Assembly: GCA_050260255.1 (NCBI GenBank)
Contig: JBLNBW010000107.1
Location: 1,848 to 65,847, forward strand
DNA: 64,000 nt
Source of the DNA: Rhodospirillaceae bacterium
GTDB lineage: Bacteria; Pseudomonadota; Gammaproteobacteria; Burkholderiales; SG8-41
Reading direction: 5' to 3'
The notes beneath the pieces are model-generated. The model did no database searches. It worked only from the letters and a program-made list of their open reading frames with translations, and was not told where the DNA came from. Positions 5,213 through 13,219 of this stretch are shown one piece after another (position 1 is the stretch's first letter; each line of letters opens with the position of its first letter). Both the position numbers and the translations under genes were made by a program.

Positions 5213-6088
5213 GTGTGGACCGACATCGCACGCGACATCAGCGCTGCCACCGGTGATCCGTTCACGGTCCGCACGCGTCGCGAGGTGAGTGGCGGGTGCA
5301 TCAATGCGGGACACGCCGTGAGCGATGGACGCCGCACTTACTTCGTGAAGACCAATGCCGCACCCGCGCACGCGATGTTTGCCGCAGAAGCCGCAGCGCT
5401 CACGGCGATCGCCGGCACGCGCAGCGTGCGCGTGCCGTGCCCGATCTGCCATGGGCGCAACGCCGCCGCTGCATGGCTCGTCCTCGAGCACGTGAATCTT
5501 CATCCGCTTTCGCAAGCGGCGGCGGGCGCTTTGGGTGAGCAGCTCGCCGAACTGCACCGATGCACCGCGGCGCGGTACGGCTGGGATCGCGACAACACGA
5601 TAGGCAGCACACCGCAGGCGAATGCGTGGTGCAGCAACTGGGTGGAATTCTGGCGCGAGCGCCGCCTGCGCCCGCAATACGCGCTCGCCCTTCGGAACGG
5701 TTATGGCGGCGCGCTGCAGGAGAACGGAGAGCGGCTGATGGAGCGGCTCCAGCGCTTCTTCCCGGGCAACATGCCGCCCGCATCACTGCTGCACGGCGAT
5801 CTGTGGTCCGGCAATGCGGCATGCGACATGTCCGATGCGCCGGTCGTGTTCGATCCCGCCAGCTATTACGGCGACCGCGAAGCGGACGTCGCGATGACCG
5901 AGCTCTTCGGCGGCTATCCGCAGGGGTTCTACGCGGCGTATCAAGCATCGTATCGGCTCGATCCGGGCTACCGCGAACGCAGCACGCTGTACAACCTGTA
6001 CCACGTGCTCAACCACCTCAACCTCTTCGGCGGACGCTATCTCGAGCAGGCCGAAGCGATGACGATGCGATTGCTCGCCCTAGCCTAA
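5213..6088 (+). CDS. fructosamine/ketosamine kinase family protein
   Basis: GTG start, 291 aa. LLHGDLWSGN catalytic motif and a kinase-like fold pattern (TYFVKTN..., DPASYYGDRE). Confidence 0.85.
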   Translation: MWTDIARDISAATGDPFTVRTRREVSGGCINAGHAVSDGRRTYFVKTNAAPAHAMFAAEAAALTAIAGTRSVRVPCPICHGRNAAAAWLVLEHVNLHPLSQAAAGALGEQLAELHRCTAARYGWDRDNTIGSTPQANAWCSNWVEFWRERRLRPQYALALRNGYGGALQENGERLMERLQRFFPGNMPPASLLHGDLWSGNAACDMSDAPVVFDPASYYGDREADVAMTELFGGYPQGFYAAYQASYRLDPGYRERSTLYNLYHVLNHLNLFGGRYLEQAEAMTMRLLALA

Positions 6089-7121
6089 GAGCGCGCTTGG
6101 GCGGCGCCGTGCTCTCGCGCACGACCAGCTCGACCGGCAGCTCGCGCCGCTGCGGAACGGTCTTTCCCGTGAGCCGCGCAAGCAGATGTTGGGCCGCCAG
6201 CGTGCCGAGCTCTGCCGTGGGAAACCGCACGGTTGTAAGGCTCGGGGTAATGAGCGCCGCGATTTCCATGTCGTCGAAGCCCGTCACGGAAATATCGTGC
6301 GGCACGCGCAGGCCCCGCGCGTGGCACTCTGCCATCGCGCCTATCGCGAGCACGTCGTTGCCGCAAATCACTGCCGTGGGCGCCGGTTCGCGGCCGTCGA
6401 GCAGCTCGGCAAGCCCTTCGCGTCCCGCGCGCAGGTGGAACGGCTTCTCCACCAGGCGCGTCGCGGGCAGGTTGATGCCGCGTGCGGCGAGGGCGTCGCG
6501 CACGGCCTCGCGCCGCTCCCGCGCGCGCTCGTTGTTGAGCGTGATGCCGGAGATCATTGCAAAGCGCCGGTGTCCGAGCTCGAGCAGGTACTTCACGAGC
6601 CGCGTCGCCGCGGCGCGGTTGTCGAAGCCCACGCAGGGATGACGCCCGGCCTTGTCGAGCGCCCACGACAGCACGTACGGAACACCCTGCGACTCGATCA
6701 TTCGGAACAGCTCCGGATGGTGCGCCGTCCCGACCAGCACGAGTCCGTCGACGCCGCGGGCCATCAGCGCACGCGTCACGCGCAGCTCGGTGTCCGGATC
6801 GAATTCGTGGCTCGCGAGCAGCAGCGTGTAGCCGGCGTCGTCCAGCGCCTTCTGTAGCGCGTGCGTGGTGTTGGCGAAGATCGCGTTGTCCAGCGTCGGT
6901 ATCACCGCGCCTATCGTATGCGTACGACGTGTGGCGAGCGCACGCGCCGCACCGTGAGCGACGTAGCCCAGCGCTTTCACCGCTTCCTCGATGCGCTTCA
7001 ACGTGTCGGCGCGCACCTTGTGCGGCAACGTGAGCGCGCGCGACACCGTAGCGGTCGACACGTGCGCCATGCGCGCGACGTCGGAGAGCTTGGCTGTCGA
7101 TCGGGGCTCTGTCGTTTTCAT
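6018..7121 (-). CDS. LacI-family transcriptional regulator
   Basis: N-terminal HTH AKLSDVARMAHVSTATVSRAL plus a periplasmic-binding-protein-like core. The C-terminal ~28 aa tail overlaps the convergent kinase gene by 71 nt. Confidence 0.9.
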   Translation of the reverse strand: MKTTEPRSTAKLSDVARMAHVSTATVSRALTLPHKVRADTLKRIEEAVKALGYVAHGAARALATRRTHTIGAVIPTLDNAIFANTTHALQKALDDAGYTLLLASHEFDPDTELRVTRALMARGVDGLVLVGTAHHPELFRMIESQGVPYVLSWALDKAGRHPCVGFDNRAAATRLVKYLLELGHRRFAMISGITLNNERARERREAVRDALAARGINLPATRLVEKPFHLRAGREGLAELLDGREPAPTAVICGNDVLAIGAMAECHARGLRVPHDISVTGFDDMEIAALITPSLTTVRFPTAELGTLAAQHLLARLTGKTVPQRRELPVELVVRESTAPPKRALRLGRAIASSSLRPARDSVRRRG

Positions 7122-7127
7122 GAATGA

Positions 7128-7155
7128 AAGAAGCCGGCCTCACGGCCGGCTTCTT
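7128..7155 (-). terminator. 12-bp GC-rich hairpin between the xsc stop and the lacI-type start
   Basis: AAGAAGCCGGCC-tcac-GGCCGGCTTCTT. On the minus strand it is followed by TTTCATTCAT, and it ends 7 nt before the regulator ATG. Confidence 0.45.
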
Positions 7156-7212
7156 CGGTAACAGGGCGGGAAGAGTATCACAAACGCTTCATCGCCTCCC
7201 GCCTCACCCGCG

Positions 7213-8982
7213 TCAGCGGTATTCCTTCGCGCTGAACTTCTTGTATTTCGCCAGCAGGCGGCGCGGCTGGCGGAACGCATCCCGGCGGAACGGATCGCCG
7301 AGCTCCTGCGTGAGCAGGAGATTGATGACCGTGGGCTTGTTCGATTTCGCGGCACCGCGCAACGCGTCGCCGATCTCGTCGACATGATCGACGGTGATGC
7401 CGCTCGCGCCCATCGCTTCGGCCACCTCGGCGAAATTCGGGTTTTTCAGATTCGTCCCGAGGAAACGGTTCTCGAAGTAATCGATCTGGTTCTTCTTCTC
7501 CGCGCCCCACTGACCGTTGTTGAACACCACCGCAACGACCGGGATGTTCTCGCGCACGCAGGTCATCACTTCGTTGAGGCTCATCCCCCACGCCCCGTCG
7601 CCGACATAGGCGATCGCCGGGCGGTCGGGACGGCCGACTTTCGCGCCCATCGCCGCGGGATAGGCATAGCCGCAGTTGCCGAAGCTCATCGCCGCGAGGA
7701 ACGACGGCGCCTGCTCGAAGTGCAGGTAGCTGTTCGACACCGAGCATACGTTGCCGATGTCGGTGGACACCATCGCGTTCTTGGGCATCGCTTTGGCGAG
7801 CGCCGCAAGCGCCTGACGCGGACCGATCCGTCCTTTTTCATTGGGGGAGGCCCACTTCGCGAGCTCTTCGGTCCATGCCTTCCTTTCTTTCGCCACTTCG
7901 GCAAGGCGCGCCTTGTTCGGCGCGAGCTTCACCTGCGCCTTCAGGCGCTCGAGCAGCGCGACGGCGGCAAGACGCGCGTCGCCGCAGATGCCTATGCTTA
8001 CTTTCTTCACGAGACCCAGCATGCGCGGATCGGCATCGACCTGGATGATCTTCGCGTCCTTGGGCCAGTAGTCGAGACCATGCTGCGGCAGCGTGCCGAA
8101 CGGGCCGAGCCGCGAGCCGAGCGCAAGCACCACGTCGGCTTTCGAGATGAGCTGCATCGCGGCCTTCGAGCCCTGGTAGCCCAGCGGGCCACAGGACAGC
8201 GGGTGACTCGCCGGGAACGAGTCGTTGTGCAGATACGAGTTGACCACGGGTGCGGTCAGATACTCGGCGAGCGCGACGCATTCCTTGATGCCGTCGGCCA
8301 TCACCACGCCGCCGCCGGAGAGGATAACGGGGAACTTCGCTTTCGCGAGCAGCTTGGCGGCCGCATCGAGCGATTCCGGTCCGCCGGGGCCGCGCTCGAG
8401 CTTTTGCGGCTGCGGAATCTCGAAGTCGCCCTCGCCATAGAAGTAGTCGCGCGGAATGTTCACTTGCACGGGGCCGCGCTCGGCCATCGCGATGTCGAAC
8501 GCGCGACCGGTGAGCTCCGCGATGCGCAGCGGCGAGTTCACGTGCACCTGCCATTTCGTGATCTTGGAGAAGATCGGCATCTGCTCGGTTTCCTGGAAAC
8601 CGCCCAGCCCCATCGTCATGCTGCCCGATTCCGGCGTGATGGCGACGACCGGCGAATGCGCCCAGTACGCGGCCGCAATGCCGGTCACGAAGTTCGTGAT
8701 GCCCGGGCCGTTCTGGGCGATGCACACACCATGCTTGCCGGTGACGCGCGAATAGCCGTCCGCCATATGCGCCGCGTTTTGCTCGTGCGCGACCGAAATG
8801 AAACGTATGCCGGCGAGCGGAAAGAGATCGTGCGCGTCCATGTAGGCCGAACCCACGATGCCGAACGTGTCCTTTACCCCTTGCGCAACCAGCGTCTCCA
8901 CGAACGCCTCGCTGGGCGTCATGCGTAGTTTTCCTCCCGCCTGCTGCTTGGCGAGACTCTTGGTGTCGGTCATCGTGTTCAT
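7213..8982 (-). CDS. xsc: sulfoacetaldehyde acetyltransferase (ThDP-dependent)
   Basis: ORF trimmed to MNTMTDTK, preceded by AGGAGG. Strong by-eye match to Xsc: MTPSEAFVETLVAQGV, NGPGITNFVTGIAAAYWAHSPVV, GPVQVNIPRDYFYGE, NSYLHNDSFPASHPL, ELGDPFRRDA. Confidence 0.88.
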   Translation of the reverse strand: MNTMTDTKSLAKQQAGGKLRMTPSEAFVETLVAQGVKDTFGIVGSAYMDAHDLFPLAGIRFISVAHEQNAAHMADGYSRVTGKHGVCIAQNGPGITNFVTGIAAAYWAHSPVVAITPESGSMTMGLGGFQETEQMPIFSKITKWQVHVNSPLRIAELTGRAFDIAMAERGPVQVNIPRDYFYGEGDFEIPQPQKLERGPGGPESLDAAAKLLAKAKFPVILSGGGVVMADGIKECVALAEYLTAPVVNSYLHNDSFPASHPLSCGPLGYQGSKAAMQLISKADVVLALGSRLGPFGTLPQHGLDYWPKDAKIIQVDADPRMLGLVKKVSIGICGDARLAAVALLERLKAQVKLAPNKARLAEVAKERKAWTEELAKWASPNEKGRIGPRQALAALAKAMPKNAMVSTDIGNVCSVSNSYLHFEQAPSFLAAMSFGNCGYAYPAAMGAKVGRPDRPAIAYVGDGAWGMSLNEVMTCVRENIPVVAVVFNNGQWGAEKKNQIDYFENRFLGTNLKNPNFAEVAEAMGASGITVDHVDEIGDALRGAAKSNKPTVINLLLTQELGDPFRRDAFRQPRRLLAKYKKFSAKEYR

Positions 8983-9066
8983 GAATATCCTCCTGGTGTA
9001 GCCGGCATGCGGGTAACGGATAAAGTCACGGGCGAACGAGGCGCCCATTATACGCGGCGACGTCGC

Positions 9067-9086
9067 TCGTGCAAGCGCTTGCACGA
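9067..9086. promoter_or_regulatory. candidate LacI-family operator (20-bp perfect palindrome)
   Basis: TCGTGCAAGCGCTTGCACGA is its own reverse complement. The core TGCAAGCGCTTGCA fits the LacI-family TGnAAnCGnTTnCA pattern. It lies in the divergent xsc / FAD-FeS gene intergenic region. Confidence 0.7.
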
Positions 9087-9147
9087 AACCGCCGGAGCAG
9101 CGCCCTGATGCAGTTACAATACCGGCGCCCCGAAGCCGAGCGAGCTC

Positions 9148-12072
9148 ATGCCCGACCAGACCGTCCCGCCGACCGCCCTATCGCTGCCGCCGCACGCACA
9201 ACGCGAACTCGCCGTCGAAATCGCCCGGCGCACAACGGCCGAAGTCCTGTTCGACGCCGGCAACCGCGCGGCGTATTCGGCCGACGCCTCCAACTATCGG
9301 CAGATTCCCATAGGCGTGGTCGTTCCCCGGACGGTCGATGACGTGGTCGCCACCATGGCGATCTGCCGCGAGCGCGACGTTCCGGTCCTCGCGCGCGGCG
9401 GCGGCACATCGCAGTGCGGCCAGTGCGTGAACGTGGCCGTCGTCATCGACAATTCGAAATACCTCAGTCGCGTCCTCGACATCGATCCGCAGGCAGCGAC
9501 TGCGCGCGTCGAGCCCGGCATCGTATGCGATGCGCTGCGCGATGCCGCAGAGCTGCATGGCCTTACTTTCGGTCCCGACCCGGCGACGCATAGCCGCTGC
9601 ACGCTGGGCGGCATGATAGGGAATAACTCCTGCGGTGCGCACTCGGTGATGGCGGGCAAGACCGTCGAGAATATCGAAGCGCTGGAAGTCCTGACGTACG
9701 ACGGCGCGCGCATGTGGGTGGAGGCCACGACCGACGCGCAACTCGAAGAAATCATCCGCGCCGGCGGGCGTCGCGGCGAGATTTACGCCCGGCTGCGCGC
9801 GCTGCGCGACCGTTATGCCGATCTCATCCGGGCGCAATTCCCGCGCATCAAACGTCGCGTGTCGGGCTACAACCTCGATCAGCTCTTGCCGGAGAACGGC
9901 TTCAACGTCGCGCGGGCGCTCGTCGGCTCCGAGGGCACGTGCGCATACACCTTGCAAGCAGTGACGCGGCTGGTGCGCAGCCCGCCCCATCGCGTGCTGC
10001 TGATCCTGGGCTTTCGCGACATCTATGCGGCGGGCGACGCGGTGCCGCACGTCTTGCCGTTCCAGCCGATTGCCACCGAAGGATTGGACGAGCGCCTCAT
10101 CGGTGGCCTGCGCGAGCGCGGACTGCGGCTTGCCGACATCGCCGCGCTGCCCGCCGGCCGCGCCTGGCTCATGATCGAATTCGGCGGCGAAACGCCGGGG
10201 GCGGCCGCCGTGCAGGCGAACGCACTCGTTCGGTCGTACGAAGCGAGCCCGCATGCGCCCAGTGCGTCGCTCATCACCGATCCTCAGCTGTGCGAGCGCA
10301 TGTGGTCGATACGCGAAACGGCGGCCTCCGCCACGGCGCTCTCGCGCACGCCGGGCGCGGTCGACCCGACGATCGGTTGGGAAGATGCGGCCGTCGATCC
10401 CTTGCGACTCGGCGACTATTTGCGCGAGTTCCAGGCGCTCGTCGACCGCTACGGCTATGAGACTTCCCTCTACGGCCATTTCGGCGACGGCTGCATACAC
10501 GCGCGCATCACCTTCGACCTGCGTTCCGACGGCGGCGTCGCGACATGGAAGTCTTTTCTGCGCGACGCGGCGCGGCTCGTGGTCGCGTACGGCGGCTCGC
10601 TCTCGGGCGAGCATGGCGACGGCCAGGCGCGCGCGGAATTCCTGCCGCTCATGTACGGCCCGGAGCTCATGGAAGCCTTCCGCGAGTTCAAGCGCATCTG
10701 GGATCCGGGCAATCGCATGAATCCGGGCAAGCTAATCGATGCGTACCGCGTGGACGAACACCTGCGCCTGGGCCCCGACTACCGTCCGGCGCGGCCTGTG
10801 TCTCACTTCGCCTTCCGTACGCCGGAGGGCAGCGGCTTCACGCGAGCGGTCGAGCGCTGCGTCGGCATGGGCAAGTGCCGCTCGCACGAGGGCGGCGTCA
10901 TGTGTCCGAGCTTTCGCGCGACGGGCGACGAGCGCAACTCGACGCGCGGACGCGCACGCCTTCTCTCCGAGATGCTGCGCGGCGACGTGATCGCCGACGG
11001 CTGGCGCAGCGATGCGGTCCGCGAAGCGCTGGAGCTGTGCTTTGCATGCAAGGGCTGCAAAAGCGACTGCCCCACCCATACCGACATGGCGACGTACAAA
11101 GCGGAGTTCATGGCGCACTATTACGCCGGCCGCAGACGTCCGGTGCAGGCGTACAGCATGGGCCTTATCCATCGCTGGGCTCGGCTCGCATCGCGCGCGC
11201 CGCGGTTCGTGAACACGCTCACCCATACACCGGGAATCGCCGCATTGGCGAAGCGGCTGGCGGGCATCGCGCCCGAGCGCGACATCCCACGCTTTGCGCG
11301 GCGGAGTTTTCGCGAGCAGTACGCGAAGCGCGCATCGCCGGGGACACGTTCCGAACGCGTCGTCTTATGGGCGGACACGTTCAACGATCACTTTCATCCG
11401 CATGCCGCCATGGCGGCCGTGCGCGTCCTGGAAGCGCTCGGGTGCATGGTCGTCGTGCCTGCGCGCAAGCTGTGCTGCGGCCGCCCGTTGTACGACTTCG
11501 GGATGATCGAGCTCGCGCGCCGTCAGCTCCTCGACATATTGGACGCGCTCGCGCCCGAGATCGAAGCCGGCACGCCGATCATCGGGCTCGAGCCCGCGTG
11601 CCTCTCGGTGTTCCGCGACGAAATGCCAAACCTGCTGCCGGACGATGCGAGAGCGGCAAAGCTCGCTGCTCAGGCGCGCCTGTTCAGCGACTTCGTGGTG
11701 ACGCACCCGCGTTGGCCGAAGCGCGGCGGATTGAGCGGCGCCGCGCTGGTCCACGGCCATTGCCATCAGAAAGCCCTGTTCGGCATGGACAGCGATCTTG
11801 CCTTGTTGCGCTCGACAGGTCTTACCGCGTCGCTCATCCCATCGAGCTGCTGCGGCATGGCGGGCTCGTTCGGATTCCATCCGCAGCATTACGCCATCTC
11901 GATGAAAGCCGGCGAAGCGAGCGTGCTGCCCGCGGTACGAAACGCGGCATCCGATACGCTGATCGTCGCATCCGGGTACAGCTGCCGCGAGCAAATCGAG
12001 CACGGCGCGGCGCGCGAGACGGTGCACATCGCGCAAGTCGCAGCGCGCGCACTCGACACCCCGGCAAGCTGA
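9148..12072 (+). CDS. FAD-linked oxidase fused to an Fe-S/CCG domain (GlcD-GlcF / YdiJ-type 2-hydroxyacid dehydrogenase)
   Basis: 974 aa. FAD_binding_4 region (PVLARGGGTSQCGQ), two Cys clusters (CVGMGKCRSHEGGVMCP; CFACKGCKSDCP) and two CCG motifs (KLCCGRPL; SCCGMAGSFG). Confidence 0.9.
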   Translation: MPDQTVPPTALSLPPHAQRELAVEIARRTTAEVLFDAGNRAAYSADASNYRQIPIGVVVPRTVDDVVATMAICRERDVPVLARGGGTSQCGQCVNVAVVIDNSKYLSRVLDIDPQAATARVEPGIVCDALRDAAELHGLTFGPDPATHSRCTLGGMIGNNSCGAHSVMAGKTVENIEALEVLTYDGARMWVEATTDAQLEEIIRAGGRRGEIYARLRALRDRYADLIRAQFPRIKRRVSGYNLDQLLPENGFNVARALVGSEGTCAYTLQAVTRLVRSPPHRVLLILGFRDIYAAGDAVPHVLPFQPIATEGLDERLIGGLRERGLRLADIAALPAGRAWLMIEFGGETPGAAAVQANALVRSYEASPHAPSASLITDPQLCERMWSIRETAASATALSRTPGAVDPTIGWEDAAVDPLRLGDYLREFQALVDRYGYETSLYGHFGDGCIHARITFDLRSDGGVATWKSFLRDAARLVVAYGGSLSGEHGDGQARAEFLPLMYGPELMEAFREFKRIWDPGNRMNPGKLIDAYRVDEHLRLGPDYRPARPVSHFAFRTPEGSGFTRAVERCVGMGKCRSHEGGVMCPSFRATGDERNSTRGRARLLSEMLRGDVIADGWRSDAVREALELCFACKGCKSDCPTHTDMATYKAEFMAHYYAGRRRPVQAYSMGLIHRWARLASRAPRFVNTLTHTPGIAALAKRLAGIAPERDIPRFARRSFREQYAKRASPGTRSERVVLWADTFNDHFHPHAAMAAVRVLEALGCMVVVPARKLCCGRPLYDFGMIELARRQLLDILDALAPEIEAGTPIIGLEPACLSVFRDEMPNLLPDDARAAKLAAQARLFSDFVVTHPRWPKRGGLSGAALVHGHCHQKALFGMDSDLALLRSTGLTASLIPSSCCGMAGSFGFHPQHYAISMKAGEASVLPAVRNAASDTLIVASGYSCREQIEHGAARETVHIAQVAARALDTPAS

Positions 12073-12076
12073 AGGG

Positions 12077-12847
12077 ATGCCGGGCTTCGAAACCATCACG
12101 CCTGCAACGCTCGCCTGGATCGTGCTCGTGATGGCCTTATCCGGCGCGATGCAAGGCGCTCTCGGTCTCGGCTTTCCGACCGTCGCGACGCCGCTCATAA
12201 CGATGGTGACCGACATCCGTACGGCCGTCGTGCTGGTGTTGCTGCCGTGCCTTGCGACCGTCGCGCTCAATCTCTTCCGCGGCGGCCCCATGCGGCCGGT
12301 GCTCGCACAGTTCTGGATGATGCCGATCTACATGCTGATCGGCGCGGCCACGGGAACCCGGCTGTTCGTCGCGTATCCGGAGTTTCCGTACGCATTGCTG
12401 CTCGCCGTGGTGATCTTCGTGTATCTTAATCTCGATCGCCTCGGCCGGACCGATTGGCCCGCGATGCAGCGTTATCGCCATGGATACGCGGCGCTGTTCG
12501 GGGTCATGGCCGGCGTGTCGGAGGGCACGGCCAACGTGGCCGCGCCGCCGCTCATCGTGTACTACCTCGGCATAGGCACATCGCCGCTGCTACTCGTTCA
12601 GGCGCTCAATTTGTGCTTCTTCACCGGCAAGACGACCCAGTTTCTGACCCTCGCGACGGCCGGCGGCGTCAATGCAACGCAGTGGCTCGTGACCATCCCA
12701 CTTGCGGCGATCGCCGCGGCCGGCGCCTGGATAGGGATACGCCTGCGCAGCCGCATCGCTGCGGAGACCTATCGCCGCTGGCTTAAATGGGCGCTGTTCG
12801 CGATTGCCATCGTGCTCGTCGCGCAGCAGGTGTGGCGGTGGTCGTGA
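12077..12847 (+). CDS. tauE: TauE/SafE-family sulfite (anion) exporter
   Basis: 256-aa polytopic membrane protein starting 4 nt after the upstream stop. Two-repeat TauE-like organisation (ALSGAMQGALGLGF... / GVSEGTANVAAPPL...). Confidence 0.75.
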   Translation: MPGFETITPATLAWIVLVMALSGAMQGALGLGFPTVATPLITMVTDIRTAVVLVLLPCLATVALNLFRGGPMRPVLAQFWMMPIYMLIGAATGTRLFVAYPEFPYALLLAVVIFVYLNLDRLGRTDWPAMQRYRHGYAALFGVMAGVSEGTANVAAPPLIVYYLGIGTSPLLLVQALNLCFFTGKTTQFLTLATAGGVNATQWLVTIPLAAIAAAGAWIGIRLRSRIAAETYRRWLKWALFAIAIVLVAQQVWRWS

Positions 12848-12856
12848 CGGCGCGCT

Positions 12857-12886
12857 AAAAAGAAAACAGGCCGCCTGGCGGCGGCC
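12857..12886 (-). terminator. rho-independent terminator of grxD
   Basis: Minus-strand GGCCGCC-gcca-GGCGGCC stem followed by TGTTTTCTTTTT, just downstream of the grxD stop. Confidence 0.7.
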
Positions 12887-12910
12887 CGTCGAGATGCAGC
12901 GTCAAACGTA

Positions 12911-13219
12911 TCAGGACTTCAACAGCTGCGCGAGCTCGCCGCTCTTGTACATCTCCGTCATGATGTCCGACCCGCCGACGAATTCGCCGTTCACGTACAG
13001 CTGGGGGATCGTCGGCCAGTTGGCGTATTCCTTGATGCCCTGACGGATTTCCGGATCTTCCAGCACGTTCACGGTGAACACGTCTTCCGCGCCGCATGCG
13101 CGCAGAATATTCACGGCGTTGGCGGAAAAGCCGCACTGGGGAAAGTCGGGCGAGCCCTTCATGTAAAGCACGACCTTGTGCTTGGTGACCTGGTCTCTGA
13201 TGGTGTCTTGGGTGCTCAT
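12911..13219 (-). CDS. grxD: monothiol glutaredoxin (Grx4 type)
   Basis: 102 aa. CGFS active site ([10 protein letters not shown]) and [16 protein letters not shown]. Confidence 0.95.

Follow-up and report, generated by a model that had tools for sequence, protein, structure and literature searches.

What supplies sulfoacetaldehyde to Xsc when xsc stands beside an FAD/Fe-S dehydrogenase and a TauE-type exporter? The window, a 64,000-nucleotide stretch of Burkholderiales DNA, contains such an arrangement, and the original prediction was that the dehydrogenase oxidizes a hydroxy-sulfonate and in this way feeds Xsc. Our comparisons point elsewhere. Two or three independent units probably lie side by side here, xsc and its lacI gene being separate from the dehydrogenase, which is most likely an older neighbor with another job. 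As it stands, the locus represents ordinary C2-sulfonate catabolism beside an unrelated gene.

Gene content of the locus

All four genes of the cluster stood up to open reading frame and domain searches. On the minus strand, xsc (7213-8982, 589 aa) is followed 91 nt downstream, in the same direction, by lacI (6018-7121), whose product carries the Pfam LacI HTH and Peripla_BP_1/3 domains. Across an intergenic region of 165 nt common to both lies the plus-strand gene for a 974-aa dehydrogenase in which GlcD and GlpC are fused (9148-12072). Its stop codon comes exactly 4 nt before the start of tauE (12077-12847, plus strand), which encodes a TauE/SafE (TSUP) membrane protein. A terminator-like hairpin (12865-12890) and the minus-strand grx gene (12911-13219; glutaredoxin of 102 aa, PF00462, 75 bits) come next. 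The flanking genes, argH, fructosamine kinase, grx, prmC, prfA, and hemA, are housekeeping genes; grx adjoins tauE and prmC, an arrangement kept in relatives, and the glutaredoxin is a backbone neighbor outside the sulfonate unit.

The ThDP enzyme is the desulfonating Xsc, as predicted, passing both curated equivalog cut-offs (NF005713, 925 bits against 620; TIGR03457, 901 bits against 676) and containing all three ThDP domains, PF02776 (N-terminal), PF00205 (central), and PF02775 (C-terminal). Its frame is open from 7213 to 9084, and we chose the ATG at 8982 as the start because AGGAGG stands 6 nt ahead of it. This is the single Xsc above cut-off in the whole genome, and 14 control genomes yielded none above cut-off. 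The enzyme would split sulfoacetaldehyde into acetyl phosphate and sulfite. For pta, the best match to TIGR00651 in the genome reached 180 bits against a cut-off of 311, within an 844-aa frame, and for ackA (TIGR00016) the genome gave no match, in an assembly of 350 contigs whose gaps may hide either gene; neither of the partners that usually take up acetyl phosphate thus scores above cut-off.

TauE matches PF01925 at 70 bits (cut-off 32.6) and none of the NCBIfam equivalogs. The PF01925/TSUP family is functionally broad, and tauE is kept in genomes without xsc: it adjoins grx whether xsc or the dehydrogenase is there or not, as part of a tauE-grx-prmC-prfA-hemA backbone. The protein is a probable sulfite/anion exporter, and the export of sulfite proposed earlier is plausible; tauE remains the neighbor of xsc in genomes that lack the dehydrogenase, such as G010.

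The 974-aa dehydrogenase

The FAD_binding_4, FAD-oxidase_C, Fer4_8/17, and CCG domains of the dehydrogenase form a fused GlcD and GlpC architecture; a GlcD-GlcF/YdiJ-type fusion had been predicted, but the assignment to the YdiJ type did not hold. On the YdiJ model (NF049975), which has a cut-off of 1350 bits, the protein reaches 470, in an alignment that covers the GlcD half only, whereas the Pseudomonas putida YdiJ/PP4493 orthologue scores 1599 bits; the two proteins are 26.6% identical, as are the dehydrogenase and a third P. putida paralogue. P. putida also has a member of the dehydrogenase's own family (53% identity), with a PucR-type neighbor. By these sequence comparisons the enzyme belongs to a separate, third, and widespread GlcD-GlpC family without a characterized member, a possible point of interest for specialists.

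Two other GlcD and GlpC fusions have been characterized: YdiJ/PP4493 as a D-2-hydroxyglutarate dehydrogenase and PP4737 as a D-lactate dehydrogenase (PMC12297413). The enzyme here has in common with them the FAD_binding_4, FAD-oxidase_C, 4Fe-4S dicluster, and CCG domains, and probably catalyzes the same chemistry, oxidizing a D-2-hydroxy acid to a 2-oxo acid and passing electrons to quinone; it is probably a quinone-linked D-2-hydroxy-acid dehydrogenase. Our best guess for the substrate is a D-2-hydroxy-dicarboxylate, such as D-2-hydroxyglutarate. In Paraburkholderia, the orthologues (62% identity) come after LysR and HglS-like (PF07063) genes; the product of HglS is D-2-hydroxyglutarate, and its gene often adjoins genes of the "glycolate dehydrogenase" type (bioRxiv 10.1101/450254). 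A tree combined with gene contexts places sister clades beside HglS-like, aldehyde dehydrogenase, or PucR genes and no sulfonate genes. Proteins linked to xsc and proteins from loci without it fall in one clade of that tree, with 99% support.

A LacI-type repressor with a conserved predicted operator

The palindrome TGCAAGCGCTTGCA (14 bp, 9070-9083) is perfect, occurs once in the window against 0.02 matches expected, and is the sole exact copy in the 5.06-Mb genome. It recurs as TGYAARCGCTTGCA ahead of xsc in all of the related loci compared (20/20), with or without the dehydrogenase, and its center always falls 68 to 230 nt before the start of xsc. The distance from its center to the dehydrogenase start ranges from 72 to 5894 nt where that gene is present, and half of the loci (10/20) lack it. 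In loci without lacI-xsc, the operator was not found upstream of the dehydrogenase. The presence of the operator goes with xsc rather than with the dehydrogenase.

The LacI protein has the HTH and sugar-binding fold of its family, and the CG-centered palindrome at the target promoter is its predicted operator. Among NCBIfam models the protein comes closest to GntR, the gluconate repressor of P. aeruginosa (255 bits, under the cut-off of 400), its orthologues adjoin xsc in nearly all of the related xsc loci that were fetched, and a genome search with it as query found one further LacI paralogue. By eye, a putative xsc promoter can be read on the minus strand (9047-9074), with a -35 of TTGCAC at 9074-9069, a 16-nt spacer, and a -10 of TATAAT at 9052-9047; this -35 falls within the operator. 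A consensus scan of the intergenic region at a threshold of at least four of six matches per hexamer returned nothing, the by-eye xsc promoter included, and so identified no promoter belonging to the dehydrogenase. We propose that lacI and xsc form an autoregulated operon, in which the repressor would bind the palindrome overlapping the xsc -35 until an effector relieves repression. Since only 64 nt separate the operator from the start codon of the dehydrogenase, joint regulation of this gene with xsc is likely here, and LacI may co-repress the dehydrogenase and tauE as one operon, which would be sensible for tauE alone.

Known regulators of C2-sulfonate pathways include TauR, IseR, SauR, and NaaR. 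The LacI-type control of xsc that had been suggested gains substance from the conserved palindrome predicted at the xsc promoter, and a LacI-type repressor with a well-defined putative operator for xsc in this Burkholderiales family may be of interest to specialists.

Independent gain and loss of the neighboring units

We compared the locus across 121 genomes of the family, counting as close orthologues of the dehydrogenase proteins of at least 65% identity. The position proved to be a variable spot, argH-[lacI-xsc]-X-tauE-grx-prmC-prfA-hemA, where the place marked X is taken by the dehydrogenase, taken by a GMC oxidoreductase together with TRAP transporter genes, or left empty, and the units within it have been gained and lost independently. 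GMC oxidoreductase and TRAP genes neighbor xsc in four genomes (G019, G040, G009, and G003), together with sulfatases and an Fe-ADH in G003; in G009 they are inserted between the xsc unit and the dehydrogenase unit. In G010, lacI-xsc and the operator are followed directly by tauE, and in G003, G037, and G008 tauE is near xsc and the dehydrogenase is absent. At one locus (L076), the dehydrogenase and tauE keep the argH...grx-prmC synteny without xsc, and no Xsc was found in that genome or in the genome of a second locus (L085).

Xsc is encoded in 82 of the 121 genomes (68%), plus a frameshifted copy in G047, and the dehydrogenase has close orthologues in 34. Since 25 of these 34 genomes (74%) encode Xsc, against 68% overall, dehydrogenase presence does not predict xsc; 58 Xsc genomes lack a dehydrogenase orthologue. 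The divergent layout that the original prediction proposed to look for does recur, in about 22 of the 121 genomes and in several genera, but this recurrence reflects shared synteny within one lineage. Divergent gene pairs kept by lineage synteny alone do not prove a pathway.

The source of sulfoacetaldehyde

Domain and model searches found no taurine, isethionate, sulfoacetate, or sulfopyruvate enzymes and no pta in the cluster or on its contig. The earlier remark that the known suppliers and pta are missing from the cluster was thus correct, and a conventional IseJ-like supplier lies on other contigs. Its genes, for a GMC dehydrogenase resembling IseJ, a TRAP transporter, and an IclR regulator, are split over the ends of contigs C219 and C105; the two contigs have 25 nt in common, and the missing GMC N terminus is encoded at the C219 end, beside dctPQM and the IclR gene. 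The GMC protein is 70 to 76% identical to xsc-adjacent GMC proteins of relatives and 53 to 54% identical to the GMC of clusters arranged as IclR-GMC-MFS-xsc-yeiH-pta (S. meliloti pSymA and Caballeronia pNK83), with a matching layout. In eight relatives, GMC orthologues (71 to 85% identical to the query GMC of G019) adjoin xsc or lie within 25 kb of it. Proximity to xsc in relatives, an isethionate-type transporter, and a regulator together give the gene the context of an iseJ and make IseJ its candidate activity. This ise-like locus has no LacI operator and carries an IclR-like palindrome instead.

Among the closest known systems is the IseJ and Xsc isethionate pathway (iseR, iseJ, iseU or iseKLM, and xsc), known from the annotation of Ruegeria pomeroyi (PMC4334477) and from a further description (PMC6453916). 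Like that pathway, the genome combines an Xsc above cut-offs with a flavoenzyme of the GMC type, a transporter of the TRAP type, and a regulator of the IclR family, and GMC orthologues adjoin xsc in relatives. Unlike it, the genome keeps xsc apart from the ise-like genes and places it under a LacI-family repressor that has a putative operator of its own, in place of IseR, TauR, or SauR; no pta or ackA scores above cut-off, and the exporter is of the TauE rather than the YeiH/TauZ type. Sulfoacetaldehyde here most likely comes from isethionate: the TRAP transporter would import it and the GMC flavoenzyme oxidize it, both encoded at the separate locus with the IclR regulator, and the sulfite released by Xsc would probably leave through the backbone TauE.

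Two further genes were considered as suppliers. NaaS, an N-acetyltaurine amidohydrolase, is paired with the metallochaperone NaaT, and an amidohydrolase on contig C313 was considered as NaaS since a CobW-type GTPase before it parallels that pairing; it is dissimilar to the amidohydrolase adjoining xsc in Caballeronia. A TauY-like gene on contig C263 (42% identical to TauY of C. sphaeroides) was not accepted as a taurine dehydrogenase: it lies beside CoA ligase and enoyl-CoA hydratase genes, without TauX, and its product scores best on aminophosphonate/pipecolate oxidase models.

The layout is most constant in the genomes of genus g10. Most of them have no orthologue of the IseJ-like GMC protein. 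Five were tested further: none has an orthologue of the TRAP binding protein of the IseJ-like locus, and four have no intact TauY-like gene, G046 having a broken copy only. Some relatives are without every feeder searched for.

Alternative roles for the dehydrogenase

These g10 genomes bear on the proposal that the dehydrogenase is induced together with xsc and acts on a sulfonate; it would convert isethionate directly to sulfoacetaldehyde, or (R)-sulfolactate to sulfopyruvate, as SlcD does, ahead of a decarboxylase, with TauE exporting the sulfite. We consider this unlikely, although several features fit it: the intergenic region with its LacI operator is common to both genes, the dehydrogenase is coupled to tauE by 4 nt, about 22 genomes retain the layout, and most g10 genomes with it lack an IseJ-like orthologue, the five tested further also the TRAP orthologue, and four of these an intact TauY-like gene. 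The absence of a characterized member in the enzyme family also leaves a sulfonated 2-hydroxy acid possible as substrate. A route from sulfolactate dehydrogenase through ComDE to Xsc is known (PMC11382572), and SlcD, the membrane-bound sulfolactate dehydrogenase feeding ComDE and Xsc in Roseovarius nubinhibens and Ruegeria (PMC11382572, PMC4334477), would be closest to the original idea by its reaction, as a non-NAD 2-hydroxy-acid dehydrogenase upstream of Xsc. Known SlcD genes, however, sit with hpsNOP, which the cluster here lacks. The genome contains two ComDE-like ThDP gene sets, but no ComDE above cut-off: the best ComE-like protein reaches 85 of the 221 bits required and the best ComD-like protein 72 of 148, and the ComE-like proteins score about equally on a phosphonopyruvate decarboxylase model. 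Isethionate is a primary alcohol and no 2-hydroxy acid, whereas characterized GlcD-type relatives use 2-hydroxy acids (PMC12297413; bioRxiv 10.1101/450254), and the neighbors in sister clades are those listed above. The distribution of the genes also weighs against a feeding role. The dehydrogenase and tauE stay together in genomes without any Xsc, xsc and its operator persist in 58 genomes without the dehydrogenase, the presence of the dehydrogenase does not predict Xsc, and GMC and TRAP genes separate the two units in G009. Two genomes with xsc, G010 and G026, have neither a dehydrogenase orthologue nor an IseJ-like orthologue, so another feeder must exist in the family.

A second explanation, doubtful but with a somewhat better chance than the first, makes the dehydrogenase a passenger. 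The selected order would be xsc-operator-tauE, with LacI coordinating desulfonation and sulfite export, and the dehydrogenase would be under the operator as the first gene of an ancestral dehydrogenase-tauE operon. The direct succession of xsc, operator, and tauE in G010 agrees with this, as do the three genomes with tauE near xsc and no dehydrogenase and the gap of 3 to 190 nt between dehydrogenase and tauE in relatives. Yet tauE is equally conserved beside grx without xsc, and its position may be backbone synteny. Also unlikely is that the dehydrogenase-tauE operon was captured under the LacI operator of xsc and that the enzyme gained, or had from the outset, an ability to act on a hydroxy-sulfonate, either (R)-sulfolactate or, unusually, isethionate; if true, it would supply Xsc in the many relatives, especially the g10 genomes, that have no IseJ-like GMC orthologue. 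Under the model of independent units that we prefer, the 974-aa protein would predate the xsc neighborhood and make no sulfoacetaldehyde. The pattern of gene loss on both sides, an operator that tracks xsc, and the IseJ-like supplier elsewhere in the genome all argue for this model over a feeding role. Points on the other side are the likely co-regulation from one intergenic region, the divergent layout of about 22 genomes, the g10 genomes described above, the ise-like locus with no LacI operator, and pta and ackA missing above cut-off.

Other operator-like sites

A copy of the operator with one mismatch, on contig C210, stands before an operon whose genes encode an L-arabinonate dehydratase (1000 bits against a cut-off of 882) along with an aldolase of the HpaI type and a DASS transporter. 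The idea that sulfoacetaldehyde arises from a sulfo-sugar acid through this operon was dropped because g10 genomes have the same variant site ahead of unrelated genes, among them a set resembling 2-oxoacid:ferredoxin oxidoreductase. The same operator as at xsc also marks a second operon, of amidohydrolase, cupin, TctC, and acyl-CoA dehydrogenase genes, which may be a pointer to an undescribed source of sulfoacetaldehyde.

Gene identities and predicted control of xsc

The four genes lie where the original prediction placed them, and their identities were borne out by Pfam and NCBIfam. On the minus strand are lacI (6018-7121; LacI helix-turn-helix and sugar-binding fold) and xsc (7213-8982, 589 aa, starting at the ATG at 8982 preceded by AGGAGG; full ORF 7213-9084). 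On the plus strand are the 974-aa dehydrogenase (9148-12072; FAD_binding_4, FAD-oxidase_C, 4Fe-4S dicluster, and CCG domains) and a 256-aa TauE-family protein (12077-12847) that begins 4 nt past the dehydrogenase stop. Xsc exceeded both NCBIfam cut-offs (901 bits against 676, and 925 against 620) and was the only protein to do so in the whole genome (5.06 Mb, 350 contigs, 100% complete by markers), while the dehydrogenase scored 470 bits on the YdiJ model, below the cut-off of 1350. Housekeeping genes flank the cluster: argH and fructosamine kinase beyond lacI, and glutaredoxin, prmC, prfA, and hemA beyond tauE. The fructosamine-kinase-family gene (5213-6088) is convergent with lacI, with a 3' overlap of 71 nt if full ORFs are used.

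A candidate LacI operator, the perfect palindrome TGCAAGCGCTTGCA (9070-9083), lies in the 165-nt intergenic region between xsc and the dehydrogenase. It matches once in the window, against 0.02 expected, and has no other exact copy in the entire genome. A putative promoter on the minus strand, read by eye, has a -35 (TTGCAC) that the palindrome overlaps and a perfect TATAAT (9052-9047); a simple consensus scan did not return this promoter. The form TGYAARCGCTTGCA was found in 44 of 121 family genomes, nearly always directly before xsc, and its reversed control pattern was rare in the same set. In 20 loci the operator centre preceded the xsc start by 68-230 nt; its distance from the dehydrogenase start ranged from 72 to 5894 nt where that gene was present, and half of the loci (10/20) lacked it. 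No operator preceded the dehydrogenase in loci without lacI-xsc, and the only other LacI paralogue found in the genome has different candidate sites. Because the operator has no other exact copy in the genome, is conserved before xsc across related loci, and tracks xsc rather than the dehydrogenase, the predicted control of xsc by LacI is well supported at the sequence level. With just 64 nt separating the operator from the dehydrogenase start, repression by LacI may in this genome extend to the dehydrogenase-tauE operon, which would be sensible for tauE and imply nothing certain for the dehydrogenase.

Linkage of the dehydrogenase to xsc

The expected conservation of the dehydrogenase beside xsc and tauE held in part. 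Among 121 genomes of the same family, the divergent adjacent layout recurs in 22, but in 80 loci from named genomes it is confined to one syntenic block, argH-lacI-xsc-dehydrogenase-tauE-grx-prmC-prfA, and the dehydrogenase and tauE persist without xsc. One locus (L076) has the same block minus lacI-xsc, and four others (L013, L014, L016, and L085) retain the dehydrogenase and tauE with xsc not nearby; the L076 and L085 genomes yielded no Xsc, and in the other three genomes it lies on a different contig. Counting proteins of at least 65% identity as close orthologues, the 974-aa dehydrogenase had one in 34 of the 121 genomes, and Xsc scored above cut-off in 81, with a truncated match in one further genome and a frameshifted copy in G047. 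Xsc accompanied the orthologue in 25 of those 34 genomes (74%, versus 68% overall), and 58 Xsc genomes had no dehydrogenase orthologue. In a tree of 77 family members, xsc-linked and xsc-less dehydrogenases formed one clade with 99% support; its sister comprised M48-linked proteins together with those from Paraburkholderia that have an HglS-like gene beside them.

Twenty further xsc loci fetched from relatives kept a constant argH-lacI-xsc-operator core with differing adjoining genes. The neighbor of xsc was the dehydrogenase in this genome and in one related genus (g10), a GMC oxidoreductase with TRAP dctP and dctM genes in G019, G040, G009, and G003, unrelated genes in G016 and G004, and tauE directly in G010. 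In G009 the GMC and TRAP genes are inserted between xsc and the dehydrogenase, and tauE is beside grx in all these xsc loci. The xsc locus is a variable spot where three units come and go independently. In G003 (L124, G003:C3:82000-100000), two sulfatases, an IseJ-like GMC protein, and an Fe-dependent alcohol dehydrogenase are encoded ahead of xsc and its operator on the same strand, a gene set that might serve the breakdown of a C2 sulfonate carrying a sulfate or some other modification.

Candidate suppliers of sulfoacetaldehyde

At one end, contig C105 of this genome encodes a protein 70-76% identical to the GMC proteins found beside xsc in relatives. One end of C219 encodes proteins that share 78-81% identity with the TRAP proteins of those relatives, with an IclR regulator gene after them. 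Because these ends overlap by 25 nt and C219 encodes the first 40 GMC residues missing from C105, they are a single locus split by a contig break, in which IclR, dctM, dctQ, and dctP genes diverge from an IseJ-like GMC gene (C219:19362-23567 and C105:32108-33656). Its intergenic region has no LacI operator; a palindrome there, TGGAAC-N5-GTTCCA, is a candidate IclR site. S. meliloti pSymA and Caballeronia pNK83 carry IclR-GMC-MFS-xsc-yeiH-pta clusters whose GMC proteins share 53-54% identity with the one encoded here, and in R. pomeroyi the IseJ gene is accompanied by iseKLM TRAP genes and iseR (PMC4334477). Of the 121 genomes, 20 encoded close GMC relatives (71-85% identical to the G019 query); Xsc was present in 17 of these, and the three without it are 84-92% complete. 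Judged by homology, a conventional feeder for Xsc exists in this genome, with a predicted isethionate-type activity.

The original prediction was that the dehydrogenase oxidises a 2-hydroxy-sulfonate and thereby feeds sulfoacetaldehyde to Xsc. With the units separate and a conventional feeder elsewhere, such a new route is unsupported for this genome, and we consider it improbable. Neither a convincing TauXY nor a ComDE above cut-off was found in the genome. In g10, where the layout is most constant, most genomes lack an IseJ-like GMC orthologue; all five g10 genomes tested lack an orthologue of the TRAP binding protein of the GMC locus, and four of the five lack an intact TauY-like gene, with only a broken copy in G046. 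Because G010 and G026 have xsc with neither an IseJ-like nor a dehydrogenase orthologue, some further feeder exists in the family regardless. Acetyl phosphate is a product of Xsc; no pta above the curated cut-off was found in the genome (the best match is a 180-bit PTA-like stretch in an 844-aa frame on C116), and ackA gave no match. Two ThDP gene sets related to ComDE and phosphonopyruvate decarboxylase (C196:1074-2359 and C117:1-702), distant two-subunit relatives scoring 72 and 85 bits, well below the ComD and ComE cut-offs, probably belong to a sister family yet to be studied.

Probable nature of the dehydrogenase

Characterised GlcD+GlpC fusions are of two kinds, dehydrogenases for D-2-hydroxyglutarate (E. 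coli YdiJ, P. putida PP4493) and for D-lactate (PP4737) (PMC12297413). The YdiJ model picked out a single gene in a P. putida genome (1599 bits). Because the dehydrogenase is 26.6% identical to this YdiJ-type protein and to a third P. putida paralogue, but 53% identical to yet another that adjoins a PucR-type regulator, we assign it by sequence to a third, uncharacterised GlcD-GlpC family. Its Paraburkholderia orthologues (62% identity) adjoin a LysR gene and an HglS-like gene, relatives elsewhere adjoin aldehyde dehydrogenases or PucR regulators, and a sister group at 55% identity, which includes a second copy in this genome, occurs with a ThDP enzyme and an enolase-superfamily protein. HglS produces D-2-hydroxyglutarate, and its gene often adjoins "glycolate dehydrogenase"-type genes (bioRxiv 10.1101/450254); no HglS gene was found in this genome. 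Our best guess is that the dehydrogenase would pass electrons from a D-2-hydroxy acid, perhaps a D-2-hydroxy-dicarboxylate, to quinone.

At C122:10999-16811, a 56%-identical paralogue follows a ThDP enzyme ~26% identical to Xsc. A dozen distant genomes have the same pairing, accompanied in several by a mandelate-racemase/enolase-family gene, which suggests a pathway of racemase, D-2-hydroxy-acid dehydrogenase, and 2-oxo-acid decarboxylase.

Further operator copies

Outside the window, a second LacI operator copy, TGTAAGCGCTTGCA (C313:5773, in locus C313:1851-6951), has a CobW-type GTPase gene on one side and, on the other, an operon encoding an amidohydrolase, a cupin, two TctC binding proteins, and an acyl-CoA dehydrogenase. 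This conserved second operon follows the same operator in more than 10 relatives, some with AcnX genes, and may belong to the xsc regulon. By analogy, the pairing of CobW-type GTPase and amidohydrolase recalls that of NaaT and NaaS in N-acetyltaurine catabolism. A one-mismatch copy, TGCAAGCGATTGCA (in C210:4583-9831), lies 63 nt before an operon for L-arabinonate dehydratase (1000 bits, above cut-off), an HpaI/GarL-type aldolase, a DASS transporter, and an OYE-type reductase. This copy, which is not conserved at the operon in g10, could mark another LacI target or be due to chance.
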